Shown here in pieces: positions 12,355 through 31,675 of a DNA stretch of 32,000 nucleotides. Source of the DNA: Flavobacteriaceae bacterium (GTDB taxonomy: Bacteria; Bacteroidota; Bacteroidia; Flavobacteriales; Flavobacteriaceae); NCBI GenBank assembly GCA_965224465.1, contig OZ245049.1:4260001-4292000 (forward strand), given 5' to 3'. The position numbers and the translations under genes were made by a program. The number at the start of each line of letters is the position of its first letter. The stretch's first letter is position 1. A model generated the notes under the pieces. The model saw only the letters and a program-made list of their open reading frames with translations. It ran no database searches and had not been told where the DNA came from.

Positions 12355-14172
12355 ATGAGTGCACCAAAAACCAGCCTAAGTATAGACGGGAAAACCATTA
12401 CAAGTTTTACTAAAATATACTTAGTTCAAAAAATAAATGACCATCATTTTTTTGAAGTTATTTTAGACAATGATGTGGTAGAAGAAACTGGAGGACATAC
12501 GATAGATAAATCGAAGGGTTGGCTAGGGAAATCATTAATTATAACTTTTGGTACCGTCGATTTCTTAGGTTATATAAGCTCCATAAACCTTGAAAATAAG
12601 GATGGACATAATGGTGATTTAATCATAAAAGGATATTCGCCCACCATACTTTTACAAGGAGGAAAACAATTGTGTTCTTGGCGACAAAACACCTTAGAAG
12701 GTATTGTAAGACAAACCATGGGAGACTTACGAGTACCGTTACTCATAAAACCTACATTTAACGAAGTCATAGAATACCAAGTACAATACAACGAAAATAA
12801 TTATGATTTTTTACAGCGATTGGCAAAACAATACAACGAATGGTTTTATTATAACGGCGTACAATTAATATTTGGGAAACCACCCCAAGAAGAAGCTGTA
12901 GCAATCGAATACGGAAGAGACCTGTCCGAAATACAATTAGAAATAAAAATAAAGGATCACGGACAAACAAAATTTTCTTACAACGCTACCAATAACAGAT
13001 TAATAAGCACTTCGTCCAAGGATCAAGTAGCAGGATTAAACGAACTGGGCTCACATGCCTTTTATACCTCTTTGGAAACCTACAAAAACCCAAAAAATGG
13101 TTTCACCAATATTGAGACTGAAATGAAATCTCAAATAGACGATTTAGTGGCACGTAAACAAGCCACGCTAAGTGCAGGCTTGCATGTAATGAAAGGAAAA
13201 AGCACCAAACAGGGCTTAACCGTAGGAACTGTGATTAAGGTGAGATCTGCCAAGGTAGACGAGGAAACTAGCTTTGACATTAAAAATTATGGGGAGTATA
13301 TGATTACCAATATAAGCCACCATGCTACAGAACGTTCGGAATATTACAACACCTTTGAGGCGATTCCGTCTGGAATTGCAGTACTCGAAGAACCCAAGGT
13401 ATCCTTGCCCAAGGCATCAAACCAACTAGCCACGGTTATGTCTAATGCCGACCCCAGAGAAATGGGACGCGTACAAGTACGTTTTAATTGGCAAATACAC
13501 ACCATGAAAACTTCCTGGATACGTGTAATGACACCCGATGCTGGAAGCAGTAAAAACCATGCAAAAAATAGAGGACATGTTTTTATCCCCGAAGTAAACG
13601 ACCAGGTAATGGTAGGTTTTGAATACAACGATCCCAACCGACCCTTTGTGATGGGGAGTATGTTTCATAGTGAAAATGGCGCAGGAGGAAAACAAGACAA
13701 TAATATAAAATCCATCATTACTAAAAGTGGACATCGTATTGAGTTTAATGATACGCCGAGCAGTGAAAGTATTACCATTACGGATAAAAAAGGCAATCAT
13801 ATAATTATAGATACTAAAAATGAAACAATTAGTATCAATGCATTAAAGGATATTAATATTACTGCGGGAGAAAACATCAACATAAGCGCAGGTAAAAATA
13901 TTGTGGTAAATGCGGGAGAGAATATAGATGAGACGGCTGGACGGAATATATCTGTGGCTGCAGGGAAAGATATGATGTTAAATGCTGCAGGAGAAATGAC
14001 TGAAATTGCTGATAAACGTAAAGATCTAATAGATAAAGATTATAGCCGACAATCCAAAACTTCTGATGAGTATGCAAACCAAATTTCTTTATTTAGTGCG
14101 GCAGAAAACATGACTTTACAAAGTACAAAGACAGTTGTTATTAATAGTGCAGAAAAAAGTAAATTATTTTAA
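12355..14172 (+). CDS. vgrG: T6SS spike protein VgrG/TssI
   Basis: 605 aa. It has a gp27-like N-terminal part and a gp5/gpV OB-fold block (GRVQVRFNWQ...SWIRVMTPDAGS...GHVFIPEVNDQVMVGFEYNDPNRPFVMGSMFH). A C-terminal beta-helix repeat follows (ITAGENINISAGKNIVVNAGENIDETAGRNISVAAGKDM). Confidence 0.9.
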   Translation: MSAPKTSLSIDGKTITSFTKIYLVQKINDHHFFEVILDNDVVEETGGHTIDKSKGWLGKSLIITFGTVDFLGYISSINLENKDGHNGDLIIKGYSPTILLQGGKQLCSWRQNTLEGIVRQTMGDLRVPLLIKPTFNEVIEYQVQYNENNYDFLQRLAKQYNEWFYYNGVQLIFGKPPQEEAVAIEYGRDLSEIQLEIKIKDHGQTKFSYNATNNRLISTSSKDQVAGLNELGSHAFYTSLETYKNPKNGFTNIETEMKSQIDDLVARKQATLSAGLHVMKGKSTKQGLTVGTVIKVRSAKVDEETSFDIKNYGEYMITNISHHATERSEYYNTFEAIPSGIAVLEEPKVSLPKASNQLATVMSNADPREMGRVQVRFNWQIHTMKTSWIRVMTPDAGSSKNHAKNRGHVFIPEVNDQVMVGFEYNDPNRPFVMGSMFHSENGAGGKQDNNIKSIITKSGHRIEFNDTPSSESITITDKKGNHIIIDTKNETISINALKDINITAGENINISAGKNIVVNAGENIDETAGRNISVAAGKDMMLNAAGEMTEIADKRKDLIDKDYSRQSKTSDEYANQISLFSAAENMTLQSTKTVVINSAEKSKLF

Positions 14173-14174
14173 TT

Positions 14175-14351
14175 ATGGCAATAATACGACAAGCAAAAAA
14201 TTATAAGGTTGTTGTTAATAACAACTATCAAGCAGTTATAGGAGGGAAACTGGAGAAATATGCAGATAGTATAACTATTGACGCTATAGATGGTGATTTA
14301 AAATTAGGTAGTAATAAAAAAGTGATAAGTAATGGCGGCTGTGAAAGTTAA
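14175..14351 (+). CDS. 58-aa beta-strand-repeat ORF directly after vgrG; either a separate small gene or a detached N-terminus of the next effector
   Basis: ATG lies 2 nt after the vgrG stop. Sequence MAIIRQAKNYKVVVNNNYQAVIGGKLEKYADSITIDAIDGDLKLGSNKKVISNGGCES resembles the VgrG C-terminal beta-helix periodicity. It overlaps the next ORF by 20 nt in another frame. Below the ORF-track length cutoff. Confidence 0.45.
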   Translation: MAIIRQAKNYKVVVNNNYQAVIGGKLEKYADSITIDAIDGDLKLGSNKKVISNGGCES

Positions 14352-15672
14352 ATTTGGAGAAGTTAAGGTTATAGAAAGAGTTATAATAGGTCCTGTAATT
14401 CCAGCAAAAATAGCTGTACACTTTAGGCCTAAAGATGACTGGAAGGGTGAGTTTGGTTTTGACTGGATGCGTATAGGAGATACAAACTTATTTAACGATG
14501 CAAATTATAAAGCAATCGTTTCTAAACAGTATGAAAAAGGAACAAATACCTTAGAAACAGATGGTAATGTTTATAAAGGTGATTTTAAAAAAGATAAAAC
14601 CCTTTATAACTTATTAAAAAACGACTATAATACTCATACAATACCTTGGAAAACAACAATAAAAAATGGTGTAAAAGTCGCTGAAAATTATTTTGTACCT
14701 TGGTTATCTTTGTATCCTAACGAAGTACCTTGCGATGATAACGGAACACTTTCAACACAAACTATTTACCAAAATACCGAAGCTACTTTAAGTTTAATTA
14801 TTGACATTACAGAGGAAGCCGATTATTTAAAATTCGATACCAACGAACATTTTAAAGAAATCCCCCAAATAAACATTAAAGGAAAAACAGGACTTCTTAA
14901 AACTGAAGAAATAACTATTAGTTGTAAAACAGAATTTACAAGCGACCAAACATTAGTTATACAAGCCTATAAAAAAAATAAAACTACGGGTGAATTAGAA
15001 AGCAATATAGCAGGTAAACTAAAAATTTGGGCAAACGATACTGCTAAACGTAAAAAAACAAAAGTAGTGTTTGTTCAAATAAAGACTCCTGAAATTATTT
15101 TAACGAAAGGTAAAAGAACTGCCGATGCGAGTAAAGAAGAAAAAAGAATCAGCCAATACCTTAACCAAGCTTTAATAGAGTTACACGCTGATTCTGAAAT
15201 AGCAGATTTAGACCTTTCGAGTGTAACAACATTTTTACAATATATAAAAAGCAGAAAAGTGAGTTCTAAAAGTAATATTACAGGAGGCAGTCGTTTAAAA
15301 GATTATTTAAAAGCTCAACTAACCGCTCAATTTGGCACTAAATATGACGGCTTTTTTAAAGCATTTTATTTTGCAGAAGATGGCTATCATTCTAGCGGAG
15401 GTTTGCTAAGTGGTTATTCACAACCTAAAGCTGATTATGTTGTTGTCTTTAAGTCAGCAAACGACCAAACAGCTTCGCATGAGTTTTTACACTCCTTTAA
15501 TTTAGCTCATACGTTTACCAACAAAGTAGCAAGTGCAAACGCAAAATTTACGTATGAATATAAAAAAACAGACAATTTGTTAGATTATTCACATCATATA
15601 GGTAGAAATAATAATAAACGTTGTGGACTTTTTCATTGGCAATGGATACAAGCAAATAATTCTATCACTTAA
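14332..15672 (+). CDS. putative T6SS effector, metzincin-like zinc metallopeptidase
   Basis: 446 aa. HEFLHSFNLAH (15478-15510) matches HExxHxxxxxH spacing, with N where metzincins have G. It sits immediately downstream of vgrG and upstream of an immunity-like gene. Confidence 0.6.
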   Translation: MAAVKVKFGEVKVIERVIIGPVIPAKIAVHFRPKDDWKGEFGFDWMRIGDTNLFNDANYKAIVSKQYEKGTNTLETDGNVYKGDFKKDKTLYNLLKNDYNTHTIPWKTTIKNGVKVAENYFVPWLSLYPNEVPCDDNGTLSTQTIYQNTEATLSLIIDITEEADYLKFDTNEHFKEIPQINIKGKTGLLKTEEITISCKTEFTSDQTLVIQAYKKNKTTGELESNIAGKLKIWANDTAKRKKTKVVFVQIKTPEIILTKGKRTADASKEEKRISQYLNQALIELHADSEIADLDLSSVTTFLQYIKSRKVSSKSNITGGSRLKDYLKAQLTAQFGTKYDGFFKAFYFAEDGYHSSGGLLSGYSQPKADYVVVFKSANDQTASHEFLHSFNLAHTFTNKVASANAKFTYEYKKTDNLLDYSHHIGRNNNKRCGLFHWQWIQANNSIT

Positions 15673-15681
15673 ATTATAATA

Positions 15682-16341
15682 ATGAAACTAATATATTATA
15701 TAGTACTATATACTTTATCATTAAGTTGTATTACACAAAAAACAACAACAATATTAAATAATAACAACATGCAATATCCTGAATATAATATACCTATAAT
15801 AACCAACAAATTTGAAGTTTTTGATATAGAAATTTTCAATAAAGAGGTCAATATAATTAGCAAAAAAAGAGTAATCCAAAATGATTTAATCTACCTAGAA
15901 GAAAATTACCAAAAACCTGGATATATACGCAGAATTTACGAGAATGAGTCTTTTTTTATGATTAGTAAATTCTTTTATGACAATGGTAATATAAAATCAA
16001 AAATTATTTCTTTTAACAATGGTTCTCCATATGGTATTTGGTACGAATTCAACGAAGAAGGTAAACTCATAAAAGAAACGGATTATAATCAACCAAAAAA
16101 CAAAATAGGTTGGCGTTATATATTAAGATACTGTAATAAAAATAACATTCCATTAACAAAAGGCTATAAAGAATTTTCAGGGTTTCAGACAACTATTTAT
16201 TTAGATAAAGATGTAGAAAAAGAACAGGGCATTTGGACAATAACTTGGCAAATAGCAGGCGACAAACTAAAAGAGATAAAATTACACGGATTTTCAGCTC
16301 GTATAATTAGTGAAAAAGAATTAGAATTTATAAACCCTTAA
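15682..16341 (+). CDS. candidate immunity protein with MORN-variant (YwqK-like) repeats and a signal/lipoprotein N-terminus
   Basis: N-terminus is MKLIYYIVLYTLSLSC. Repeats FYDNGNIKSK...NGSPYGIWYEFNEEGKLIKETDYN resemble YwqK-family antitoxin/immunity repeats. There is a 9-nt gap after the effector gene. Confidence 0.55.
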   Translation: MKLIYYIVLYTLSLSCITQKTTTILNNNNMQYPEYNIPIITNKFEVFDIEIFNKEVNIISKKRVIQNDLIYLEENYQKPGYIRRIYENESFFMISKFFYDNGNIKSKIISFNNGSPYGIWYEFNEEGKLIKETDYNQPKNKIGWRYILRYCNKNNIPLTKGYKEFSGFQTTIYLDKDVEKEQGIWTITWQIAGDKLKEIKLHGFSARIISEKELEFINP

Positions 16342-21222: not shown

Positions 21223-21234
21223 AAAATAATAATT

Positions 21235-22095
21235 ATGAAAAACACAAAATTTGAAAAACCATATTACTCAATTTATGTTTACGAATTGAGTGCAGGTGAA
21301 ATATGGGTGAATGATGTGCCTCTTTTAAATTGGAAAGGACCACAAACTACGGATGGTGTGTATAATGGGAACATACCTATTAATCAAGTAGTATTACAGA
21401 ATGGTGTTTATGAGTTGAAGTGTATATTAAAGCCTCACTATGGTCAAAAAAAGTTGGTTAATACTATTGAGTCCTCTGTTTACACTATTGGGTTTCGTTG
21501 TAGACATGTAGATAATATAAAAAGTGGTATAAATGTAAATGGAGATGTTTATATTATGGAAAGACCTTATCAAAAGAGTTCTTCTGATTATAACTGGAAA
21601 GATCCCCTTATTAATTTAGAAGTGTATGTTGATGTGACGAAATTAACAATTACAGAACTCCCTTTTGTATTAGATGGTTGGCAAAACTCTGTAGATTTAT
21701 CTAAAATTAAAGAAAAGGTGCTGTTTCAAGAGGTTTTAGACTATTATCGCCAAATACATGCTATAATGGCTGCACACAATGCAACTAAGTTTTTAGAATT
21801 ATCTGAAGAAAAAATGAAACTGCAAGAACAAGCATTTTACTTTACCGAAGAGCGCAAAAAAAGCTTTAGAGCAGGAGCCATAAGTTTATTTAGTCAAAAA
21901 CTAGCGCCATTACCATTGGTTCCTTCAAATTTAAAATTACAAATTATGGGATATGGTAAATTAGTGCGCCTATTACAATTAGATGGGAGTGCTGCATTAC
22001 AATACGCAAGTCCAAAACCAGCGGAGCAAAGCAATATAGAGCTGGATGTAAAACTACACATGCGGAGTCAAGATAAAGGACTTAGTGTAATTTAA
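21235..22095 (+). CDS. 286-aa protein of unknown function, no signal peptide, paralogue A
   Basis: ORF lies 12 nt after the effector stop. It is paralogous to 22588..23448 and distantly to 30899..31675. Confidence 0.6.
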   Translation: MKNTKFEKPYYSIYVYELSAGEIWVNDVPLLNWKGPQTTDGVYNGNIPINQVVLQNGVYELKCILKPHYGQKKLVNTIESSVYTIGFRCRHVDNIKSGINVNGDVYIMERPYQKSSSDYNWKDPLINLEVYVDVTKLTITELPFVLDGWQNSVDLSKIKEKVLFQEVLDYYRQIHAIMAAHNATKFLELSEEKMKLQEQAFYFTEERKKSFRAGAISLFSQKLAPLPLVPSNLKLQIMGYGKLVRLLQLDGSAALQYASPKPAEQSNIELDVKLHMRSQDKGLSVI

Positions 22096-22106
22096 AACCT
22101 TATTTT

Positions 22107-22583
22107 ATGCAACGAAGAAACTTTATGAAAAACATAGCCATAAGTACAATTGGCATTTCATTTTCAGGAATTTTATTAAATTGCGCTGGAAAAGTAATGT
22201 ATTTGGATACTTTAATAGGACAAGCTGAGGATGTACTAAAAGGATTTGAAAAAGAAGGCGACAGCAATTTCTCCTATTATATTATTTCGAGTTTTGAGCA
22301 TTCTTTTTTTTCAGGGGATGTGGTTTTTGTTTTTTGTAAAAACAATACAATAGTTGGTTTTTCAGTGAAAAGAAACAATAATAAAGCAAGCAAAGAGATA
22401 GAAGCATTGTCAGAATTGTATGGTACTAAAAAAATAACCTACGAGAGTGACTTTGGAATAGAATACCAATGGAAAACAGCTGATAGAAGAATTTCTTTAA
22501 GCCATACTAAAACGTATAAAGACTTTCCTCAAAACACCTTCTATAGCGAAGCTTTATTAGATAGTAAACTGATTGTAGTGTAA
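22107..22583 (+). CDS. 158-aa lipoprotein with Tat-like signal, candidate immunity protein
   Basis: MQRRNFMKNIAISTIGISFSGILLNCAG carries a twin-arginine RRxF(L/M)K motif plus a lipobox-like LLNC. Confidence 0.6.
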   Translation: MQRRNFMKNIAISTIGISFSGILLNCAGKVMYLDTLIGQAEDVLKGFEKEGDSNFSYYIISSFEHSFFSGDVVFVFCKNNTIVGFSVKRNNNKASKEIEALSELYGTKKITYESDFGIEYQWKTADRRISLSHTKTYKDFPQNTFYSEALLDSKLIVV

Positions 22584-22587
22584 AATT

Positions 22588-23448
22588 ATGGAAAACACAA
22601 AATTTGAAAAACCATATTACTCAATTTATGTATATGAGCTTAGTGCAGGAGAAATTTGGGTGAATGATGTACCACTAGTTCGTTGGGTAGGACTTCAAAC
22701 GGCTGATGGTGACTATATTGGGGAAATACCAATCAATCAAGTTGTTTTAGAAAATGGAGAATATGAATTAGAATGTAAATTATTGCCTAGGTATGGTAAT
22801 AAACTTTTAGGAAATTCATCCTCTTACGATTTATATAACATCGCATTTCAATGTAGAGAAGTAAATGTTTTAAAAAGTAGTATTGTCTTTCATCCTGAAA
22901 TAGACACGCCCTCTTCTGGAAATTGGGATGAAAATAAGAAAAAATTTATTAGCGACGTATTTAATGATTTACCAGTATACATTTCAAAAACCAAATTTAA
23001 AATAACAGAACTCCCTTTTGTATTAGATGGTTGGCAAAACTCTGTAGATTTATCTAAAATTAAAGAAAAGGTGCTGTTTCAAGATGTTTTAGACTATTAT
23101 CGCCAAATACATGCTATAATGGCTGCACACAATGCAACTAAGTTTTTAGAAATATCTGAAGAAAAAATGAAACTGCAAGAACAAGCATTTTACTTTACCG
23201 AGGAGCGTAAAAAAAGCTTTAGAGCAGGAGCCATAAGTTTATTTAGTCAAAAACTAGCACCATTACCATTGGTTCCTTCAAATTTAAAATTGCAAATTAT
23301 GGGATATGGTAGATTAGTGCGCCTGTTGCAATTAGATGGGAGTGCTGCTTTACAATACGCAAGTCCAAAACCAGAAGAACAAAGCAATATAGAGTTGGAT
23401 GTAAAACTACACATGCGAAGTCAAGAAAAAGGATTTAGTATAATTTAA
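22588..23448 (+). CDS. 286-aa protein of unknown function, paralogue B
   Basis: The C-terminal half, from ITELPFVLDGWQNS onward, is almost identical to paralogue A at both nucleotide and protein level. The N-terminal half is much more diverged. Confidence 0.6.
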   Translation: MENTKFEKPYYSIYVYELSAGEIWVNDVPLVRWVGLQTADGDYIGEIPINQVVLENGEYELECKLLPRYGNKLLGNSSSYDLYNIAFQCREVNVLKSSIVFHPEIDTPSSGNWDENKKKFISDVFNDLPVYISKTKFKITELPFVLDGWQNSVDLSKIKEKVLFQDVLDYYRQIHAIMAAHNATKFLEISEEKMKLQEQAFYFTEERKKSFRAGAISLFSQKLAPLPLVPSNLKLQIMGYGRLVRLLQLDGSAALQYASPKPEEQSNIELDVKLHMRSQEKGFSII

Positions 23449-23533
23449 AGATTATTTTATGCAACGAAGAAACTTTATAAAAAATACAGCAATAGGTGTT
23501 ATCGGTATTTCTTTTTCAGGAATTCTATTAAAT

Positions 23534-24658
23534 CTTAAATTCAACTAATAAACGCAACTTTTCGATTTGATTCTATGATGGTTATATTTTCAAAACAGAA
23601 AAGTAGGAAAACCTACCTTTCTTGTCTTGATGGATATGTATCTTACGGTCTCAAATCTCGAAAAAAGAAGTTGTATGAAACACATCACCCAAGCGCAAAG
23701 ATACACAATTTGTTGCATGTTAAAACAAGGTTATAAACAGGTTGAGATAGCAGCTGCTATAGGAAAAGACAAGTCTGTTATTAGCAAAGAGATTAAGCGT
23801 AATTCAGACAAAAGAAATGGAGTTTACAAGCATGAATTAGCCCAAAAAAAGTATGCTAAACGTCATAAAGAAAAGCCTAAAAGAAAACGCTTTACAGAAG
23901 ATATTCAACAAGCAATAGAGTTGTTATTGCGAGACGATTATAGTCCTGAGCAAGTAGTTGGTGTCCTAAAAAAACAAGGTAAAGAAACGGTGTCTATTGA
24001 GCGTATATATCAGCATATTAGGGAAGACAAGAGGAATGATGGTGATTTACATACACACCTTCGCAGACAGGGAAGGAGATATAGAAAACGTGGCTCATCA
24101 AAGGATTCTAGAGGGGTTATAAAGAATCGTATTAGTATAGAACAACGCCCTGAAGTTGTTGAACAAAGAAATCGATTTGGAGATTTAGAGGTCGATTTAA
24201 TCATAGGTAAAAACCATAATCAAGCCATACTTACCGTAAATGATAGAGCTTCTGGAATGCTTAAAATGAAAAAAGTAAGCTCTAAAGAAGCAGTTGTTGT
24301 CACTAAAGCTATCAATGAAATATTAGAAGACTGGAAGCCTTATCTACATACTATAACAGCTGATAATGGAAAAGAATTTGCAGGCCATGAGCAGGTTGCA
24401 GAAAATTTATGTATTGATTACTTTTTTGCGCATCCATATCACTCTTGGGAAAGAGGATCTAACGAAAATTTAAATGGTTTGATTAGACAATATTTTGCCA
24501 AAGGAAGTGACTTTACAAACCTAACAGATCAAAGAATCAAAGAGGTAGAAACAAAATTAAATAACAGACCTAGGAAGAGACATAAATATCAAAACCCTAT
24601 ATTTGTAATGGAACAATTATTATTTAACTAAAAGTTGCGTTTGTGACTTGAATTCAGC
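23534..24658 (+). mobile_element. IS30-family insertion sequence
   Basis: ~1125 bp. Imperfect ~25-bp TIRs (AATTCAAsTmAyAAACGCAACTTTT). The 3-bp AAT is duplicated at 23531-23533 and 24659-24661. A single transposase ORF is present. Confidence 0.85.
23675..24631 (+). CDS. IS30-family DDE transposase
   Basis: N-terminal HTH MKHITQAQRYTICCMLKQGYKQVEIAAAIGKDKSVISKEIKRN. DDE region contains LEVDLIIG, ITADNGKEF and HPYHSWERGSNENLNGLIRQYF. The track ORF begins at a TTG at 23627; the ATG at 23675 is preferred. Confidence 0.9.
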   Translation: MKHITQAQRYTICCMLKQGYKQVEIAAAIGKDKSVISKEIKRNSDKRNGVYKHELAQKKYAKRHKEKPKRKRFTEDIQQAIELLLRDDYSPEQVVGVLKKQGKETVSIERIYQHIREDKRNDGDLHTHLRRQGRRYRKRGSSKDSRGVIKNRISIEQRPEVVEQRNRFGDLEVDLIIGKNHNQAILTVNDRASGMLKMKKVSSKEAVVVTKAINEILEDWKPYLHTITADNGKEFAGHEQVAENLCIDYFFAHPYHSWERGSNENLNGLIRQYFAKGSDFTNLTDQRIKEVETKLNNRPRKRHKYQNPIFVMEQLLFN

Positions 24659-25067
24659 AATTGCTCTGGAGAAGTAATGTCTTTAGATAATTTAATCGGG
24701 CAATCAGAAGATATACTAAAAGGGTATAACAAAGAAGGCGACAGCAATTTCTCCTATTATATTATTTCGAGTTTTGAACATTCTTTTTTTTCAGGGGAAA
24801 AAGTTTTTGTTTTTTGTGAAAACAATACAATAGTTGGTTTTTCGGTAAAAAGAAACAACAATAAAGCAAGCAAAGAAATAGAAGCATTGTCAGAATTATA
24901 TGGAACTAAAAAAATAACCTACGAGAGTGACTTTGGAATTGAATACCAATGGAAAACAGCTGCTAGAAGAATTTCTTTAAGCCATACCAAAACGTATAAA
25001 GACTTTCCTCAAAACACCTTCTATAGCGAAGCTTTACTAGATAGTAAACTGATTGTAGTGTAAAATT

Positions 25068-25139
25068 ATGGAAAACACAAAATTTGAAAAGCTCTTTTAC
25101 TCTGTTTATATTTATGGGTTGAGTGCAGGATCTAAGTAA
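25068..25139 (+). pseudogene. remnant (first 21 codons) of a third 286-aa family copy
   Basis: MENTKFEKLFYSVYIYGLSAG matches the paralogue N-termini. Homology stops at 25130, where sequence related to the effector gene begins. Confidence 0.75.
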
Positions 25140-26823
25140 ATCAATTGTCTCTTTTAAAGTAGAAGAATGGCTTCTGGGCACAACCGAAGCTGAAAAAAGA
25201 AGCGATGCTATAAAGGCTTTTTTTGCAAAAGGAAAACTAGATCCAGACCGTATTACATCTGTAGGTTATGGAGAAGCTAATCGTAAAGATAAGGATTCTT
25301 CCGCATTTATAAACGAAAAGGATTATATAGAGGCGAGGCGGGTAGATATTTCTTTTAACATTCCAGTGCATCAAGCAATAGTTTATGAAACTATTGCCCC
25401 AAGTCATAAAAAAAACATCACTATAGATGTTACGGATTTTGATACAAAAGATTGTTTTAGAGAAGCAAACAAGCATAAAGTAGAAATCCTGGTACTATCG
25501 GACAATGCAACAGAAAAAAACGGAGCTAACTCTTTAGAGTTCCCCATACAATCCACCTTGTCAGCAGCAAACCCAGCTCCTTTACAATATATCTGGCCAA
25601 AATACAACCTAATTAATCCAGAAAAAAGCATGGACGCTGCAGCAACCTATATTGCGCATATACATAGTTGTCGGTATTTTTTTAATGCTCATACCCCTAC
25701 AGTGGTTGTAAAAGCATATCCTGATATTAAGTGGGATTTTCACTTATTTTTAAATTTAAGTAATAGTTTGGCTGTGAAATCGCAAAACCTTTCTCCTGCA
25801 CAACATAAAAAAATGCAAAGTAATGCAGGGAAAATTGGCGCCGAAAAACGCTGGAAACAAACCGATATAGATTTTGGTGTTGTACTTGCCGCAAAATGGG
25901 ATAAAAACCCAACTACAAGTAATTATGGAAGTGAATTAGACCTCACATTAAAATGGGAAGATAAGATAAAACGTTTTTATCAGATTTTTTCTCAATTAAA
26001 AGAAGCTTCTAAAATAATAGCTGGAAAAACAAAAAGTACAGCTGGAAAAACAGTTGGTAAAAAATTTCCTTTAGACGTTGATGTTTTACCTCCTAATTTA
26101 TGTCTAGGTGTCGAATGGCAATTGGAAAGAGGTATAAAAAATAATAAAGAAAGTACAGAGTTAGGGACATTATTAAAGTTTTATTTTAAAGCAGAGCCAC
26201 TTCTAGGAATAGAGCTAACTTTTGATTTGTTAAATGCTGCTGTTACAGCCGTAGCAAGTCCAGCTGCGGCTTTAATTGTTTCAGAAATAAGAGATTGGCT
26301 AAAAGGTGATGATGATGAAAACAGACCACTATCAATCGATATATATCTTAATTTAGTTGTTTTTGGTACAATTCAAATCTCAGATTTATCATTACAATAC
26401 AACACCGCTTCTGATAGTACAGATCCAAAACAAAAAGCACAATTAGACGCATCTGCAACTGTAGGTTTAAAGATAGAAGCAGGCTTGGTTGTAAAAGCCA
26501 GATTAGTAGTAATAGTAGGCGAATTTTATGCACAAGCCTACGCTAAGTTTGAAGGTTTAGGCTCTATAACCTTTGGGCATAAGTTAGTACATCAAACTAG
26601 TAAATTATACTATAGACCTAAACTAATGTTTGATGGTGTCACGGCTAAGGTAGAAATTAAAGCGGAAATAGGACTTTTAATTAAAAAGGGATGGTTTGAA
26701 GGTGATTATAATAAAGATCTAGTAGATTTTAACGAAAAATATGAATTGTTTAAACCTTTTGACATCATTGAAGGCATAGAAAAATTAACAGGATTAAGTG
26801 CGAATATAACACTCTTAGGATAA
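25123..26823 (+). CDS. orphan effector cassette 1: 5'-truncated, internally deleted paralogue of the 889-aa effector
   Basis: Only a GTG start is available. SIVSFKVEEWLLGTTEAEK matches main-gene codons at ~18653-18705. The sequence then jumps in frame to RSDAIKAFFAKGKLD (main-gene 19651 onward), so about 315 codons are missing. The rest is collinear but diverged over the full C-terminal domain. Confidence 0.7.
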   Translation: MQDLSKSIVSFKVEEWLLGTTEAEKRSDAIKAFFAKGKLDPDRITSVGYGEANRKDKDSSAFINEKDYIEARRVDISFNIPVHQAIVYETIAPSHKKNITIDVTDFDTKDCFREANKHKVEILVLSDNATEKNGANSLEFPIQSTLSAANPAPLQYIWPKYNLINPEKSMDAAATYIAHIHSCRYFFNAHTPTVVVKAYPDIKWDFHLFLNLSNSLAVKSQNLSPAQHKKMQSNAGKIGAEKRWKQTDIDFGVVLAAKWDKNPTTSNYGSELDLTLKWEDKIKRFYQIFSQLKEASKIIAGKTKSTAGKTVGKKFPLDVDVLPPNLCLGVEWQLERGIKNNKESTELGTLLKFYFKAEPLLGIELTFDLLNAAVTAVASPAAALIVSEIRDWLKGDDDENRPLSIDIYLNLVVFGTIQISDLSLQYNTASDSTDPKQKAQLDASATVGLKIEAGLVVKARLVVIVGEFYAQAYAKFEGLGSITFGHKLVHQTSKLYYRPKLMFDGVTAKVEIKAEIGLLIKKGWFEGDYNKDLVDFNEKYELFKPFDIIEGIEKLTGLSANITLLG

Positions 26824-26881: not shown

Positions 26882-27475
26882 ATGAACAAACTATTTAAAA
26901 TATTTTTAATGGCTTCTATGATGCAAAGTTGTGGATCGCAAACAGATTTTGATTTAACGCAACTAACTCTAAAAGGAGAAAAAATTGGAGACTTTGTTAC
27001 AAAGGACATGACAAAACAGGTATACCCATTAGTCAATAAAACAGTTACAGATAAAGAATATATAATTGTCAAAAGTGATAAGTTGCTAAAATTTAATAGC
27101 ACAAATTTAATTGGACGTCAAAATCCAAATAGTCATAAATATGGTATAAATGGGGTGTCTTTTTATTATACTAAAGTAGATAGTATCATTTATAAATATA
27201 CAATTTCTATTTATTCTAAAAAACAAGCAAAAGACCTACTTAAGGCTTTATATGAAAAATTGGGTAAACCTAACTACACTAGCTATAGGAGTGCTGAAGA
27301 TAAAGAAAAGAATAATTTTAACGCCTTGCTATGGGAGGATACTGTAAATAATCACTTATATCAACTTCGATATGGTTTAAACGGTACAGTAAAGGCAAAT
27401 TTAGAAGTGAAAAATAACTCTACAAACATTCAAGAGTTAAATATAATCAGGGCAAACTCACACTTTAATGCTTAA
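26882..27475 (+). CDS. lipoprotein, candidate immunity for orphan 1; 3' end displaced by ISAs1 insertion
   Basis: Signal and lipobox are MNKLFKIFLMASMMQSC. The last 9 codons and the stop are supplied by IS sequence. The native continuation resumes at 28685 and ends at 28820 (GSFGYWEDFLYTRQQQKNLKYSYQEYLSERLKNDSNDFKNQLTK*). Confidence 0.65.
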   Translation: MNKLFKIFLMASMMQSCGSQTDFDLTQLTLKGEKIGDFVTKDMTKQVYPLVNKTVTDKEYIIVKSDKLLKFNSTNLIGRQNPNSHKYGINGVSFYYTKVDSIIYKYTISIYSKKQAKDLLKALYEKLGKPNYTSYRSAEDKEKNNFNALLWEDTVNNHLYQLRYGLNGTVKANLEVKNNSTNIQELNIIRANSHFNA

Positions 27476-28674
27476 TACTTTTAACAGATATGCTTGATTC
27501 CAGCCTGCTTTAAGTCTTTTTCCAGCAATACCTTGTTTCTCCGTTTTTTCGTTTCTCAATAGATTCAGGGCAATTTTCAATAGTATTGAATAGTTTTGAG
27601 CTGCATTTTTATTTCTTTTTCTAGAGGCATCCTCTGAGAATGCAACATCCAATGTCCAATGTAATTTATTCTCTACACCCCAATGAGAACGAATATGACT
27701 TTGATGATTTACAGCGGTATCTTTTAAGCTAGAAATGTAATATCTAGTTGCCTTTTCTGTTTGTTTATCACTGTTTTTGAACTCCCTTATACTTTCTATT
27801 TTTATAACTTGAGTCAACTTATTCCATTTATTATCTGCGTTCTTAATAAATTGAAAATCAGAAATTACGCTACATTTTCTAGTTTCAATTCTTCCATGAC
27901 CAAGGTCAAAGTCTGTATCTATTTCTATGTTTTTTGAGAATTTGAATTCGTCCTTTATTTCCTCTAGTAGTTGTTTTTGATTTCCCTTTACGGCAAGTAT
28001 GTAATTGGCATCATTTTTTATAATCTTATCCGCAATATCAGTTTGAGTTCCCATTGCGTCTATTGTAATTATATTGCCTTCTATACACAAAGTATCAAGT
28101 AATTCCGGGATCGCAGTTATCTCATTAGATTTTTCATTGACTCTAATTTGACCCAAAACTAAATTGTTTTGATCAGCCCATGCGCTCACCATATGTACAG
28201 GTGATTTTTTTCCATTTGATTTTGCTCCTCTAAGCGCTTTTCCATCAATAGCTATTACCTGCCCTTTTGATATAGTTGAAATAGAATTGACCCATTCTAT
28301 GAAACATGTTTCAAGCTGAGAACTGTCTATCGACGAGAATACCCTGTTAATAGTGTCTTCTGATGGTATTCCATTTGGTAATTGTAGAAATTTCCTTAAA
28401 AAACCTTCTTTTGAACAAGCAAACTCAACCATTTGTTTCCATGTTTCTGCTCCACAAATGACTGAAATTATCCCAATAAGGAGGATGTCAACCAAGTTGT
28501 GTAACTTGTTTATATCGCTTCTAGGGTCTTCTATATTGCCAAAAATACTCATTATTTTACTGTCTGAATTCATATCGTTACCTATCTAATTATCAACATA
28601 ATATACTGATAATTAACGAGGTAAGCAACTTAAATTCAATGAAATTAACTTAAAAATAGTATGAGTTTGCCCTG
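27448..28674 (-). mobile_element. ISAs1-family insertion sequence
   Basis: 1227 bp with TIRs CAGGGCAAACTCA / TGAGTTTGCCCTG. A perfect 10-bp target duplication TAAATATAAT lies at 27438-27447 and 28675-28684. Confidence 0.9.
27458..28573 (-). CDS. ISAs1-family transposase (H-repeat-associated type)
   Basis: 371 aa with IEDPRSDINKLHNLVDILLIGIISVICGAETWKQMVEFA, VIAIDGKALRGA, ITIDAMGTQ, AVKGNQ and HWGVENKLHWTLDVAFSEDASR. Confidence 0.9.
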   Translation of the reverse strand: MNSDSKIMSIFGNIEDPRSDINKLHNLVDILLIGIISVICGAETWKQMVEFACSKEGFLRKFLQLPNGIPSEDTINRVFSSIDSSQLETCFIEWVNSISTISKGQVIAIDGKALRGAKSNGKKSPVHMVSAWADQNNLVLGQIRVNEKSNEITAIPELLDTLCIEGNIITIDAMGTQTDIADKIIKNDANYILAVKGNQKQLLEEIKDEFKFSKNIEIDTDFDLGHGRIETRKCSVISDFQFIKNADNKWNKLTQVIKIESIREFKNSDKQTEKATRYYISSLKDTAVNHQSHIRSHWGVENKLHWTLDVAFSEDASRKRNKNAAQNYSILLKIALNLLRNEKTEKQGIAGKRLKAGWNQAYLLKVLSIKV

Positions 28675-29368: not shown

Positions 29369-30079
29369 ATGAAAGTAGCGCAACAACTTTTTAGTATAAT
29401 ATTTTTAATTCTGTTACAATCGTGTAACTCACAAGAGAAAAAAGGAAACAAAAACAACGGAACAATGCAGCAACCATTTGATTTAGCTAACCTTACCTTA
29501 AATGAAAATATTGATGATATATTGTTAACAACTCATACATCCTTAAATGACACCATAATAGTGAACGATTACACCTATTTAGGGAATCAAAGGGTAGCAT
29601 TTTTTAAAAAAAACATATTAGTTTTTAATGGAGCACAACTTTTTAATAAGAACGATGAAATTAAAAGCCAAGTATTGTTTCATTATGGTAAAATAGACAA
29701 AGAATTAGGAGCATTTCATAATGAAAAAGATGATATTTTAGGAATGTATCAACTCAATCTAAACACAAAAAAAGAAAGTGAATTGCTCTTTGTTAATTTA
29801 AATAGCAAACTCGGTAAATGTGCTTTCACAAAAACAAGAGAAGGTTTTATAGCTGATATAAAAGAGAACAATCTAATCCCTACAAAAGATAAATTTAATG
29901 AAGAAGTATTTATTTGGAAGAAGAATGAATTAATATATTACTATTTTAAATCAGAAGTAGAAAATAAACCCAAGCAATACTTTTGTAAACTTTTTGTATT
30001 TAAATTTAATCATAAAGAATGGGTCAGCTTTTTAAGTACTTCAAGTTACCCTGAAGCTAATGAAATATTATCCTTTTGA
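29369..30079 (+). CDS. lipoprotein, candidate immunity for orphan 2
   Basis: Signal and lipobox are IFLILLQSC. It shares the post-lipobox motif FDL..LTL with the 26882 lipoprotein. Confidence 0.6.
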   Translation: MKVAQQLFSIIFLILLQSCNSQEKKGNKNNGTMQQPFDLANLTLNENIDDILLTTHTSLNDTIIVNDYTYLGNQRVAFFKKNILVFNGAQLFNKNDEIKSQVLFHYGKIDKELGAFHNEKDDILGMYQLNLNTKKESELLFVNLNSKLGKCAFTKTREGFIADIKENNLIPTKDKFNEEVFIWKKNELIYYYFKSEVENKPKQYFCKLFVFKFNHKEWVSFLSTSSYPEANEILSF

Positions 30080-30868
30080 AAACACTACTGGAAATCATTT
30101 TAATGACAGTTCTGTTACAATCGTGTAACTCACAAGAGAAAAAAGGAAACAAAAACAATGGAACAATGCAGCAACCATTTGATTTAGCAAATCTTACCTT
30201 AAATGAAAATATTGATGATATATTGTTAACAACTCATACATCCTTAAATGACACGTTAATAGTGAACGATTACACCTATTTAGGGAATCAAAGGGTAGCA
30301 TTTTCTGAAAAGAACTTATTAGTTTTTAATGGAGCACAACTTTTTAATAAGAACGATGAAGTTAAAAGCCAAGTATTGTTTCATTATGGTAAAATAGACA
30401 AAGAATTTGGAGCCATTTATAATGAGAAAGATAACATATTGGGTATGTATTAAATAAAAACAGCAACAGAAAGTAAAGCCGATTTACTTTTTAAAGTCAT
30501 TAATTATAGAAAATAAAGAGTAAAAAAATATAAATTAGGTACTATTGAAACCCATCATTGGGTAAATAACAATATGTATTTTTATTATATTATGAAAAAA
30601 GAAAATTCAAAAAACGTGTTTTTAAACATATTATTTGTCTTTAATAAAAACCACAAAGAATGGATTAATTTAATTGGTGCGTTAGGATATTCTGATGATA
30701 TGTTTTATGAAAATAAATAAAGATACCGGAAGATTTTCAGAAAACTAAATGGTTTATTTTGTTCAATATAAAATCATGAAAAAAGAAATAAATTATTCCT
30801 ATCAAGATTGTCTAGTTGAACGATTAAAAATGAATTTTGATTATATTCAGAATATAATAACCAAATAA
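30076..30868 (+). pseudogene. decayed tandem duplicate of the 29369 lipoprotein gene
   Basis: The first ~125 codons are nearly identical to 29369..30079. Then come a premature TAA at 30451, further stops and frameshifts. Recognisable remnants remain: YFYYIMKKENSKNVFLNILFVFNKNHKEWINLIGALGYSDDMFYENK and INYSYQDCLVERLK, the latter matching the tail at 28685..28820. Confidence 0.65.
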
Positions 30869-30898: not shown

Positions 30899-31675
30899 AT
30901 GAAAGAACCTTATTATATGATTGATTTTAATGCAGGAGCATGCTTATTTGAAATTAGAGTAAACGATCAACCAGTATTAAAAATGAACCTAGAAGGTCAG
31001 GCATCAACAAGAATCCCTATTAATAATGCAATTTTCAATAGTGGAAAACAAGAAGTTTCTGTTAAAATGCTTCCATTGTTAGGGCAAACAAAATTTTCAT
31101 CCAAAGCAGAGCTAAGCTACTCTATAAAGCTGTTTGATACAGTAAATGATTTTCAGTATAAGGAGCAGTATGATGGTTTTGAATCTATGAAAATTGAAAG
31201 TACAACAGCTCTAATAATAACGAATACGTTTTTTTTTAATGCGGAAATTCCATATAAGTTAAAAGATTATTGGAAAGATGGTGGGGAGATAAAAGACATT
31301 GAGGATTATGAAAAAAAAATAAGGAGAGCATATTTAGGGATAATAAACTTAATTAAAGGAGAGCAATTTGATTTGTTTTCTAAAAAGATATCTGATAGAG
31401 AATATAACATAGCTACTTCAATGTACCTTTCTTCAAATGAGTCAAATAGGAGGATTCAGGGTTTAATTAATGATTTAAATAGCGGATATGACTATCTTCT
31501 ATTTGAGGAAGAGTTTGCAATACCTGTTATTTCATCTTACGGAAAAAAAATAGCGTTGAAGAAAATAGACGGAGATCCGGCTTTAGGTTTTGGAAATAAA
31601 GAGAAAAGAGAGCAGCTTCTGTTAGATATAGAGTTTTATTTTAATAAAACAACCAATTCATTTGAAATTATATAA
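30899..31675 (+). CDS. 258-aa protein, distant member of the 286-aa family
   Basis: KEPYYMIDFNAGACLFEIRVNDQPVLKMN...IPINNAIFNSGKQEVSVKMLP parallels KFEKPYYSIYVYELSAGEIWVNDVPLLNW...IPINQVVLQNGVYELKCILKP. No signal peptide. Confidence 0.55.
   Translation: MKEPYYMIDFNAGACLFEIRVNDQPVLKMNLEGQASTRIPINNAIFNSGKQEVSVKMLPLLGQTKFSSKAELSYSIKLFDTVNDFQYKEQYDGFESMKIESTTALIITNTFFFNAEIPYKLKDYWKDGGEIKDIEDYEKKIRRAYLGIINLIKGEQFDLFSKKISDREYNIATSMYLSSNESNRRIQGLINDLNSGYDYLLFEEEFAIPVISSYGKKIALKKIDGDPALGFGNKEKREQLLLDIEFYFNKTTNSFEII

Follow-up and report, generated by a model that had tools for sequence, protein, structure and literature searches.

A tandem array of putative immunity-type modules with mosaic gene copies downstream of a type VI secretion effector in a Flavobacteriaceae bacterium

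In a 32,000-nt window of a Flavobacteriaceae genome (assembly GCA_965224465.1, contig OZ245049.1, positions 4,260,001 to 4,292,000), the stretch 21235-25139 was found to carry a tandemly repeated two-gene unit directly 3′ of a cargo effector gene of a type VI secretion system (T6SS). Each unit comprises gene A, encoding a 286-aa protein, and gene B, encoding a 158-aa lipoprotein, and the copies are designated A1-B1, A2-B2, and the remnant A3 (Table 1). We interpret this stretch as an array of displaced immunity-type modules with A as the putative toxin-specific subunit, and assign this reading a probability of about 0.5. It draws on the mosaic structure of the A copies, on the covariation of the variable half of A with the toxin end of the adjacent effector, and on the recurrence of the module in other genomes.

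In the proposed mechanism, the N-terminal beta-sandwich of A (aa ~22-138) would be specific for the variable C-terminal toxin domain of the effector, while the C-terminal helix/sheet domain (aa ~139-286) would form a constant part, with which the B lipoprotein would work. The effector toxin end and the A N-domain would be exchanged jointly as one cassette, and older modules would be displaced downstream, A2-B2 being such a module and A3 a stump from an illegitimate joint. Gene conversion or unequal crossing-over would keep the first 60 nt of A, its C-half, and B near-identical between copies. Further, an IS30-family insertion sequence (IS) would have knocked out B2 recently, and B1 could substitute for it, because the C-halves of A1 and A2 are 95% identical. 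At the protein level, we infer that A binds and neutralizes the toxin domain and that its C-half docks on B.

The tandem unit and the mosaic of its copies

The first-pass annotation had described a unit of about 1353 bp, holding a 286-aa and a 158-aa gene, that occurs twice and is followed by a 63-nt third start. This was borne out by direct repeats with spacings of 1353 and 2480 nt, which tie together 21231-22587, 22584-25067, and 25064-25129. With the IS removed, units 1 and 2 are 84% identical overall, and the extra 1128 nt of unit 2 consist of the IS30-family element plus one copy of its 3-bp target duplication. The family assignment is based on a transposase match to NF033563 (NCBIfam transpos_IS30, E 1.2e-86), terminal inverted repeats matching at 24 of 32 positions, and the target duplication AAT at 23531-33 and 24659-61. 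The element lies in the lipobox of B2, between LLN and C, and its excision in silico yielded an intact 158-aa open reading frame (ORF) identical to B1 at 142 of 158 residues; because B2 is otherwise intact, the insertion appears recent.

The A3 remnant at 25068-25130 matches the first 63 nt of A1 and A2 at 51 and 52 positions, respectively. Its reading frame stops after 23 codons and is followed by effector-derived DNA, and the joint between the two is a 10-nt microhomology, CTCTTTTAAA, that occurs in both the 286-aa gene and the effector gene, in the latter within its 5′ part. A sigma-70 promoter and terminator scan, which covers no Bacteroidota promoters, stayed at background level, and no terminator-like site was found between the effector, A1, B1, and A2 genes. 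A readthrough fusion of the effector with A was also considered and rejected, as the two genes share a frame in the window but lie in different frames in other loci.

The A copies diverge unevenly. In 60-nt windows, A1 and A2 are 90% identical at the start (56 of the first 63 nt), 38-47% around 21505-21645, and 92-100% from 21646 to the stop codon, and the unit copies remain 78-98% identical across B. The segments 21652-22095 and 23005-23448 are identical at 426 of 444 positions (96%), and at the protein level the two copies share 20 of 21 residues over aa 1-21 and 141 of 148 over aa 139-286. The synonymous divergence (dS) between A1 and A2 was 1.11 for codons 22-138 but 0.146 for codons 139-286 (0.066 for codons 139-220, 0.245 for codons 221-286). 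Therefore, the uneven N/C divergence noticed at first pass holds after alignment and is no alignment artefact, and since dS differs 8- to 15-fold, selection at the protein level alone is insufficient to explain it.

The closest relatives of the middle and of the flanks are likewise incongruent. Over aa 61-138, A1 and A2 share 33% identity, less than the 41-49% that each shares with proteins of other species; over aa 1-21 plus 139-286, they are 95% identical to each other and at most 75% to anything else. Thus the flanks were homogenized in this genome and the middle represents two old alleles. Together with dS, these results indicated that the A1/A2 mosaic is due to recombination or gene conversion, and that selection is not its sole cause. 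Gene conversion of one domain while the other diversifies, as first suggested, was hence supported in its first part, the homogenization. The second part was not: in the variable part of A the ratio of nonsynonymous to synonymous divergence (dN/dS) is 0.38-0.58 with dS saturated, which gives positive selection in place no support and weighs against the reading to that extent. These values rather point to two old alleles joined by cassette exchange than to rapid local divergence.

Two further genomes carry comparable mosaics. In Aquimarina longa (locus L006, 9995-14621), A, B, and an A relative of the lipoprotein type have been duplicated in tandem independently. Identity between its A copies is 35-75% in the first 300 nt and 95-100% beyond that point, and its B copies are 100% identical. 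Pedobacter mendelii (L022, 9998-10813 and 12655-13473) shows the inverse mosaic, the first 180 nt of its A paralogues being 97-100% identical and the rest 50-77%. This suggests that the 5′ end of A is a second homogenized or recombining patch, consistent with the conserved 63 nt that occur three times in the window. Between the A. longa units, a 71-aa ORF was also observed that joins the start of an A gene to the last ~49 aa of an effector.

Covariation of A with the toxin end and conservation of the module

The effector model (AlphaFold2, AF2; predicted local distance difference test score, pLDDT, 75) comprises N-terminal beta-sandwich loading domains, an OmpA-like peptidoglycan-binding domain at aa 315-395, and, from about aa 561 to 889, a polymorphic C-terminal domain of long beta-hairpins and helices. 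Covariation was quantified as the Spearman correlation of pairwise distances with a Mantel p-value, using 21 effector-A pairs from 21 genomes of three classes, and, for the mature domain of B, the 14 genomes that also carry B. For A aa 22-138, the distances correlated with those of the effector toxin end, aa 561-889 (rho 0.84, Mantel p 0.0005), but not with those of effector aa 1-560 (rho 0.03). The variable half had been proposed as a specificity determinant, and it does behave like one, covarying with the last 330 aa of the neighbouring effector but not with the remainder.

The other parts of the module behaved differently. The C-half of A correlated with the toxin end at rho 0.61, while the mature domain of B correlated with neither the toxin end (0.01) nor the A N-half (-0.01), and weakly with the A C-half (rho 0.34, p 0.017). 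The two effector parts, aa 1-560 and aa 561-889, were uncorrelated (rho -0.01), which implies that recombination has combined, in the effector, a front part that follows the lineage with a toxin end that can be exchanged. The effector end and the A N-domain are thus taken as the exchangeable cassette, and the A C-domain and B as the constant part, a boundary that is also the one between the tandem copies. Within the window, the C-terminal domain of the effector is tracked better by the N-half of A1 (0.72) than by that of A2 (0.43), as would be expected if A1 is the cognate copy and A2 an orphan; A1 is thus probably the cognate partner of this domain.

The array might instead be a neutral by-product, in which an unequal crossover duplicated A-B, a foreign patch was imported into one A, the second unit is decaying, the mosaic has no bearing on function, and B alone is the immunity protein. 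The gradient from the A N-half (0.84) over the A C-half (0.61) to B (0.01), which would also be expected from linkage alone if the breakpoints lie inside A, counts against an immunity reading and for this one, as do a dN/dS below 1 in the variable part, the IS within B2, the reduction of A3 to a stump, and the second IS and effector fragments downstream that mark a region in flux. Yet A2 is intact at full length, the IS insertion is recent and B2 otherwise intact, A. longa shows the same division of a variable N-part from a constant C-part and B, the N-domain tracks the toxin end over the 21 genomes, and orphan A-B pairs are kept intact in eight other genomes. Neutral origin is therefore considered improbable.

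A scan of one genome per species identified 30 loci with an A relative. Loci from Flavobacteriia, Sphingobacteriia, and Chitinophagia share the order adaptor, DUF4280, effector, and A; the effector is immediately followed by A in 22 of the 30 loci, with a spacing of 8-14 nt, B follows A in 22 of the 30, and a BtapC-like adaptor gene precedes the DUF4280 gene in most of them. The A family is T6SS-linked in all 30 genomes, so the alternative of an unrelated housekeeping family was not borne out. The window unit is likewise linked to VgrG and Hcp genes and a DUF4280 gene, with neighbours like those of the 30 related loci. In eight genomes, intact A-B pairs have no cognate effector next to them.

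An additional signal-less gene, with a product of 162-172 aa, a conserved start (...FL.PF..E/KE...), and no Pfam family, is present in some genomes. It lies between A and B in L007 (10842-11345), L013 (10836-11333), and L016 (10835-11353), and just 5′ of A in L001 (9376-9864). Its product could be another component of the module, e.g., an export chaperone.

Protein families, export, and the function of A and B

With a cutoff of E 0.1, A1 and A2 matched none of the Pfam or NCBIfam families, including the T6SS adaptor and chaperone families DUF4123, DUF1795/Eag, DUF2169, and DUF2875, and all named homologues are annotated "hypothetical protein". The AF2 model of A (pLDDT 88.8) contains a beta-sandwich (aa 9-139), four helices within aa 160-220 (160-179, 183-189, 191-201, and 205-220), and a small extra C-terminal sheet. 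A sequence-profile search of the PDB returned nothing beyond a chance-level PglZ match (E 0.023), and a Foldseek search of the PDB with the model gave no match below E 0.1. The family is large: a profile search of 1.84 billion cluster representatives retrieved 770 relatives in Flavobacteriia, Sphingobacteriia, Chitinophagia, and some Bacteroidales, as distant as Tannerella.

About half of this superfamily carries an N-terminal lipoprotein signal and half is signal-less, as counted over 148 of the 150 matches listed. In representative P0256, a lipoprotein signal is followed by a B/Lp-like domain and then an A domain, Lp denoting the family of Sec-type lipoproteins in the downstream cassettes (Lp-family profile, hhalign 95.8%, E 7e-9). 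The B family itself matched the N-terminal extensions of P0256 and P0297 weakly (hhalign E 0.25 and 6e-4), so the P0297 fusion is unproven and that of P0256 rests on the Lp profile. Because of the many lipoprotein relatives and the P0256 fusion, the A fold can, judging by these predicted signals, work outside the cytoplasm. The C-terminal ~35 residues of the A profile were matched in 58 of 67 signal-less but in 41 of 73 lipoprotein members, a difference that was discounted, as the profile had been built from signal-less sequences.

The N-terminus of B conforms to the pattern M-x-R-R-x-F-I-x-N...L-x-S-C, in which a twin-arginine motif precedes a lipobox. Across 23 aligned homologues, M1, R3, F6, and C26 are invariant, and the arginine pair is present in 20 of the 23 (22 of 26 over B ORFs of at least 140 aa). 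The motif R[RK]xF[ILVMFT] occurs in 24 of 26 B ORFs, whereas the 134 other lipoprotein-like ORFs of these loci all lack it. The signal of B1, MQRRNFMKN...GILLNC, appears to fit the pattern of lipoproteins exported by twin-arginine translocation (Tat), with an S/T-R-R-x-F-L-K type motif, a moderately hydrophobic stretch, and a lipobox cysteine. Pfam and NCBIfam scans of B gave no usable match. B is homologous to the Lp family (hhalign probability 94%, E 1e-7).

One of the closest known counterparts is the Bte3/Bti3/Ate3/Pte3 module of the GA3 T6SS of Bacteroides fragilis, structural orthologues of which have been reported in free-living Bacteroidota (PMC13402684). Bte3-like effectors are toxic only in the periplasm, and Bti3 is a lipoprotein described as having a beta-sandwich at its N-terminus plus four alpha-helices (PMC13402684). 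The window module shares with it a cargo effector with N-terminal beta-sandwiches and a beta-rich C-terminal domain, a dedicated adaptor, and a DUF4280 PAAR-like protein. In contrast to Bti3, a lipoprotein that works alone, A1 and A2 are signal-less and paired with a separate Tat-type lipoprotein; the window effector has an extra OmpA-like domain; and the adaptor and PAAR-like genes lie 5′ of the effector rather than 3′ of bti3 as in B. fragilis.

Loading of the effector onto the spike seems to be accounted for by other proteins. The window 384-aa, 164-aa, and 889-aa proteins match parts of the BtpeA-BtaeB-BtapC complex on VgrG (9jg8, 9jdh): the adaptor matches 9jg8_A (Bacteroides T6SS Adapter Protein C; phmmer E 6e-5), the DUF4280 protein matches the N-terminus of 9jg8_B (BtpeA; E 3e-15), and the effector beta-sandwiches match 9jg8_C (Foldseek E 1e-7) and 9jdh (BtaeB N-terminal domain; E 2e-6). 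That complex contains nothing A- or B-like, and so explains loading but not the function of the duplicated unit. A as a loading adaptor was rejected, because BtapC-like and PAAR-like genes are already present. Co-secretion of A as an accessory or co-effector that enters the target cell with the effector would agree with its missing signal peptide, tight linkage to the effector, and lack of a known fold; but many relatives are lipoproteins, orphan copies exist without effectors, and no subunit of this kind is present in the solved B. fragilis cargo complex, which makes it very improbable.

A defensive role of A is favoured on four grounds: eight genomes keep A-B pairs away from a cognate effector, many A relatives are lipoproteins, homologues of BtapC and BtpeA already cover spike loading, and Bte3-like effectors kill only from the periplasm and have the lipoprotein Bti3 as their immunity protein (PMC13402684). 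As to how a signal-less A would reach the periplasm, folded A might cross the inner membrane on the twin-arginine signal of B and form with it a lipid-anchored periplasmic immunity complex, a step held tentatively, at somewhat less than even odds. Such co-export would account for the Tat signal of B, the missing signal of A, and the indifference of B to toxin type, as well as for the joint homogenization of the A C-half with B and the tolerated IS in B2. Tat hitchhiker export of signal-less partners is established, e.g., for E. coli PaoABC and the hydrogenase small and large subunits (PMC4273604, PMC10924467). A-B would resemble these in combining a twin-arginine partner with an adjacent signal-less product as a candidate for folded co-export; unlike the predicted A-B complex, the known hitchhikers are cofactor-containing redox enzymes. 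We know of no immunity protein that uses this route. The complete proposal, in which A is the toxin-recognizing subunit of a split immunity complex, is Tat-exported with B, swaps its N-domain with the toxin end, and keeps its C-domain and B by conversion so that one carrier serves several specificity subunits, is unlikely to hold in all its parts at once.

Several observations speak against the immunity reading or its export step. The absence of a signal peptide from the 286-aa proteins, already remarked at first pass, was confirmed for A1, A2, and all 91 of 91 close homologues, which is difficult to reconcile with immunity to a periplasmic toxin, and an N-terminal extension of A1 is impossible, the effector stop codon lying 12 nt upstream. 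In Chryseobacterium (L017 10817-12179; L018-L020, L027, and L029), A is followed by a protein of 215-217 aa that has a single N-terminal membrane helix and then by a Sec-type lipoprotein, and B is absent, so the Tat route is not general; signal-less members of the type of the 258-aa protein at 30899-31675, including that one, also adjoin Sec-type lipoproteins. The Tat profile TIGR01409 matched 1 of 23 B proteins (E 0.039), and Pfam none; short signal models are seldom significant in profile searches. No tat genes occur among the genes of the 32-kb window, and a literature search on Tat in Flavobacteria found nothing usable. Finally, the likeness of the A fold to Bti3 (beta-sandwich plus four helices) was judged from the verbal description in that paper only. 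In Pedobacter (L022 10824-11480) and F. branchiophilum (L010 7135-7875), a membrane protein lies between A and B.

Alternatively, A may stay in the cytoplasm. A Pseudomonas aeruginosa precedent exists in Tla3, a homologue of the immunity protein Tli4 that acts as cytoplasmic adaptor for Tle3, Tli3 being the periplasmic immunity protein (PMC6560169). The two systems would share a set of three genes, whose products are an effector that acts in the periplasm, an immunity protein located there, and a cytoplasmic toxin-binding immunity homologue (A, by this proposal). They differ in that Tla3 belongs to DUF2875 and links its toxin to VgrG, while A has no Pfam match, comes from an unrelated family, and stands beside a BtapC-like adaptor. 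Under a Tla3-like scheme, A could still belong to the immunity-type array; stated as a rival, A would be an immunity-derived chaperone or antitoxin that lost its signal peptide, binds the effector C-terminal domain, and keeps the beta-barrel-like toxin end soluble or inactive until firing, with B or Lp as periplasmic immunity and A2 as the leftover of a replaced cassette.

The lack of a signal in every one of the 91 close homologues and in roughly half of the superfamily agrees with this rival, and so do signal-less members beside Sec-type lipoproteins or a membrane protein with no visible export route, the 8-14 nt gap that suggests co-production with the effector, and the SDS (sodium dodecyl sulfate)-resistant aggregates of Bte3 in cells (PMC13402684); the toxin-end covariation fits it equally well. 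It leaves unexplained the conserved Tat-type signal of B, the lack of covariation between B and the toxin, the intact A-B pairs without a cognate effector in eight genomes, and the lipoprotein fusion of a B-like domain and A in P0256. Moreover, loading is already handled by the BtapC-like and DUF4280 proteins, and since cytosolic Bte3 is non-toxic in E. coli (PMC13402684), an antitoxin in the cytoplasm may be needless. This rival, the main one, is regarded as rather unlikely. If true, it would add to Tla3 another, independent example of an immunity fold put to new use within the producing cell.

Polymorphic-toxin loci are already known to contain orphan immunity arrays and IS insertions and to undergo gene conversion. 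In the orphan toxin-tip/immunity arrays of Rhs, contact-dependent inhibition (CDI), and T6SS loci and in the acquired interbacterial defence clusters of Bacteroidales, displaced toxin C-terminal fragments and immunity genes accumulate downstream of the active effector, with recombination favoured by conserved flanks and with frequent insertion sequences. Unlike in those arrays, the boundary here falls in the middle of an immunity-type gene, one domain of which swaps with the toxin while the other stays constant with a second gene. We found no published description of the A family, of a recombination boundary inside an immunity-type gene at a predicted domain border, or of a signal-less specificity protein that is paired with a Tat-type lipoprotein.

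The toxin-tracking A thus represents a large unannotated two-domain family, with ~770 cluster representatives, no Pfam entry, and no structural match, whose relatives switch between lipoprotein, fused, and signal-less forms, while the A of the window is paired with a Tat-type lipoprotein indifferent to the toxin. This raises the testable question of how a periplasm-acting Bacteroidota toxin is neutralized when the specificity partner has no export signal. As the recombination boundaries coincide with predicted domain boundaries (effector ~aa 560, A ~aa 140), the loci offer natural domain-swap experiments for mapping toxin recognition. If piggy-back Tat export is true, it would mean a new export logic in interbacterial immunity, to our knowledge the first such case for an interbacterial immunity protein, and would explain in functional terms why a mosaic boundary lies within an immunity gene.

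Gene context and downstream remnants

The first 11 kb of the window consist of housekeeping genes, and the T6SS island begins at a shortened Hcp gene (Table 1).

Table 1. Features of the T6SS island and of the array in the window (window coordinates)
Feature	Position	Strand	Evidence or remark
Hcp/TssD, 101 aa	11611-11916		spans positions 2-91 of the 128-position TssD profile
VgrG	12355-14172
BtapC/Ate3-like T6SS adaptor, 384 aa	16881-18035	+	weak N-terminal LysM match
DUF4280 PAAR-like spike tip protein, 164 aa	18047-18541	+	Pfam PF14107, E 1.1e-19
Cargo effector, "OmpA family", 889 aa	18553-21222	+	Pfam OmpA, E 6.6e-11
Unit 1	21235-22587		1353 nt
A1, signal-less two-domain protein, 286 aa	21235-22095	+	ORF; start 12 nt 3′ of effector stop codon
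B1, lipoprotein, 158 aa, twin-arginine type signal MQRRNFMKN...LLNC	22107-22583	+
Unit 2	22588-23533 + 24662-25067		1352 nt without the insertion
A2, second 286-aa copy	22588-23448	+	full-length intact ORF; aa 22-138 diverged, aa 1-21 and 139-286 homogenized with A1
B2 5′ part, signal peptide to lipobox	23459-23533	+	aligns with B1
IS30-family insertion sequence	23534-24658	+	transposase 23627-24631
B2 3′ part, mature domain	24662-25063	+	128-aa ORF from 24677; 91-98% nt identity to B1
A3, remnant of third A copy	25068-25158	+	63 nt clearly homologous, possibly ~90 nt to joint
Orphan effector remnant	25139-26823	+	BLASTP E 4e-57
Sec-type lipoprotein, 197 aa	26882-27475	+	small-lipoprotein superfamily of B
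Second transposase, DDE_Tnp_1 + DDE_Tnp_1_assoc	27458-28573	-	Pfam E 1.7e-31, 3.3e-20
Effector C-terminal fragment, 122 aa	28935-29303	+	translation resembles the end of the 566-aa orphan
Lipoprotein, 236 aa, then partial duplicate of its first 125 aa	29369-30453	+	Lp family member
Distant A-superfamily member, 258 aa, signal-less	30899-31675	+	29% identical to A1; hmmsearch E 4e-66

The Hcp/TssD protein, at 101 aa vs. 128-134 aa in other loci, is probably truncated or frameshifted. Just 3′ of VgrG, at 14332-16341, are genes for a 446-aa protein with a zinc-peptidase-like motif (HEFLHSFNLAH; weak M12 match) and for a 219-aa lipoprotein with a MORN_2 repeat match, which by their sequence features look like a second effector/immunity pair.

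Downstream of A3, the orphan effector remnant joins 54 nt resembling effector codons 35-52 to a homologue of effector aa 364-889 (30% identity), the joint lying in the middle of the OmpA-like domain; since the loading domains are missing, it cannot work as an effector. The second transposase gene interrupts the array and overlaps the ORF of the 197-aa lipoprotein at its 3′ end, and it parts this lipoprotein from the next cassette, at the expected site of a gene of the 258-aa type. Further downstream, the 125-aa ORF at 30076-30453 is a near-exact repeat of the first 125 aa of the adjacent 236-aa lipoprotein, that is, another partial tandem duplication.

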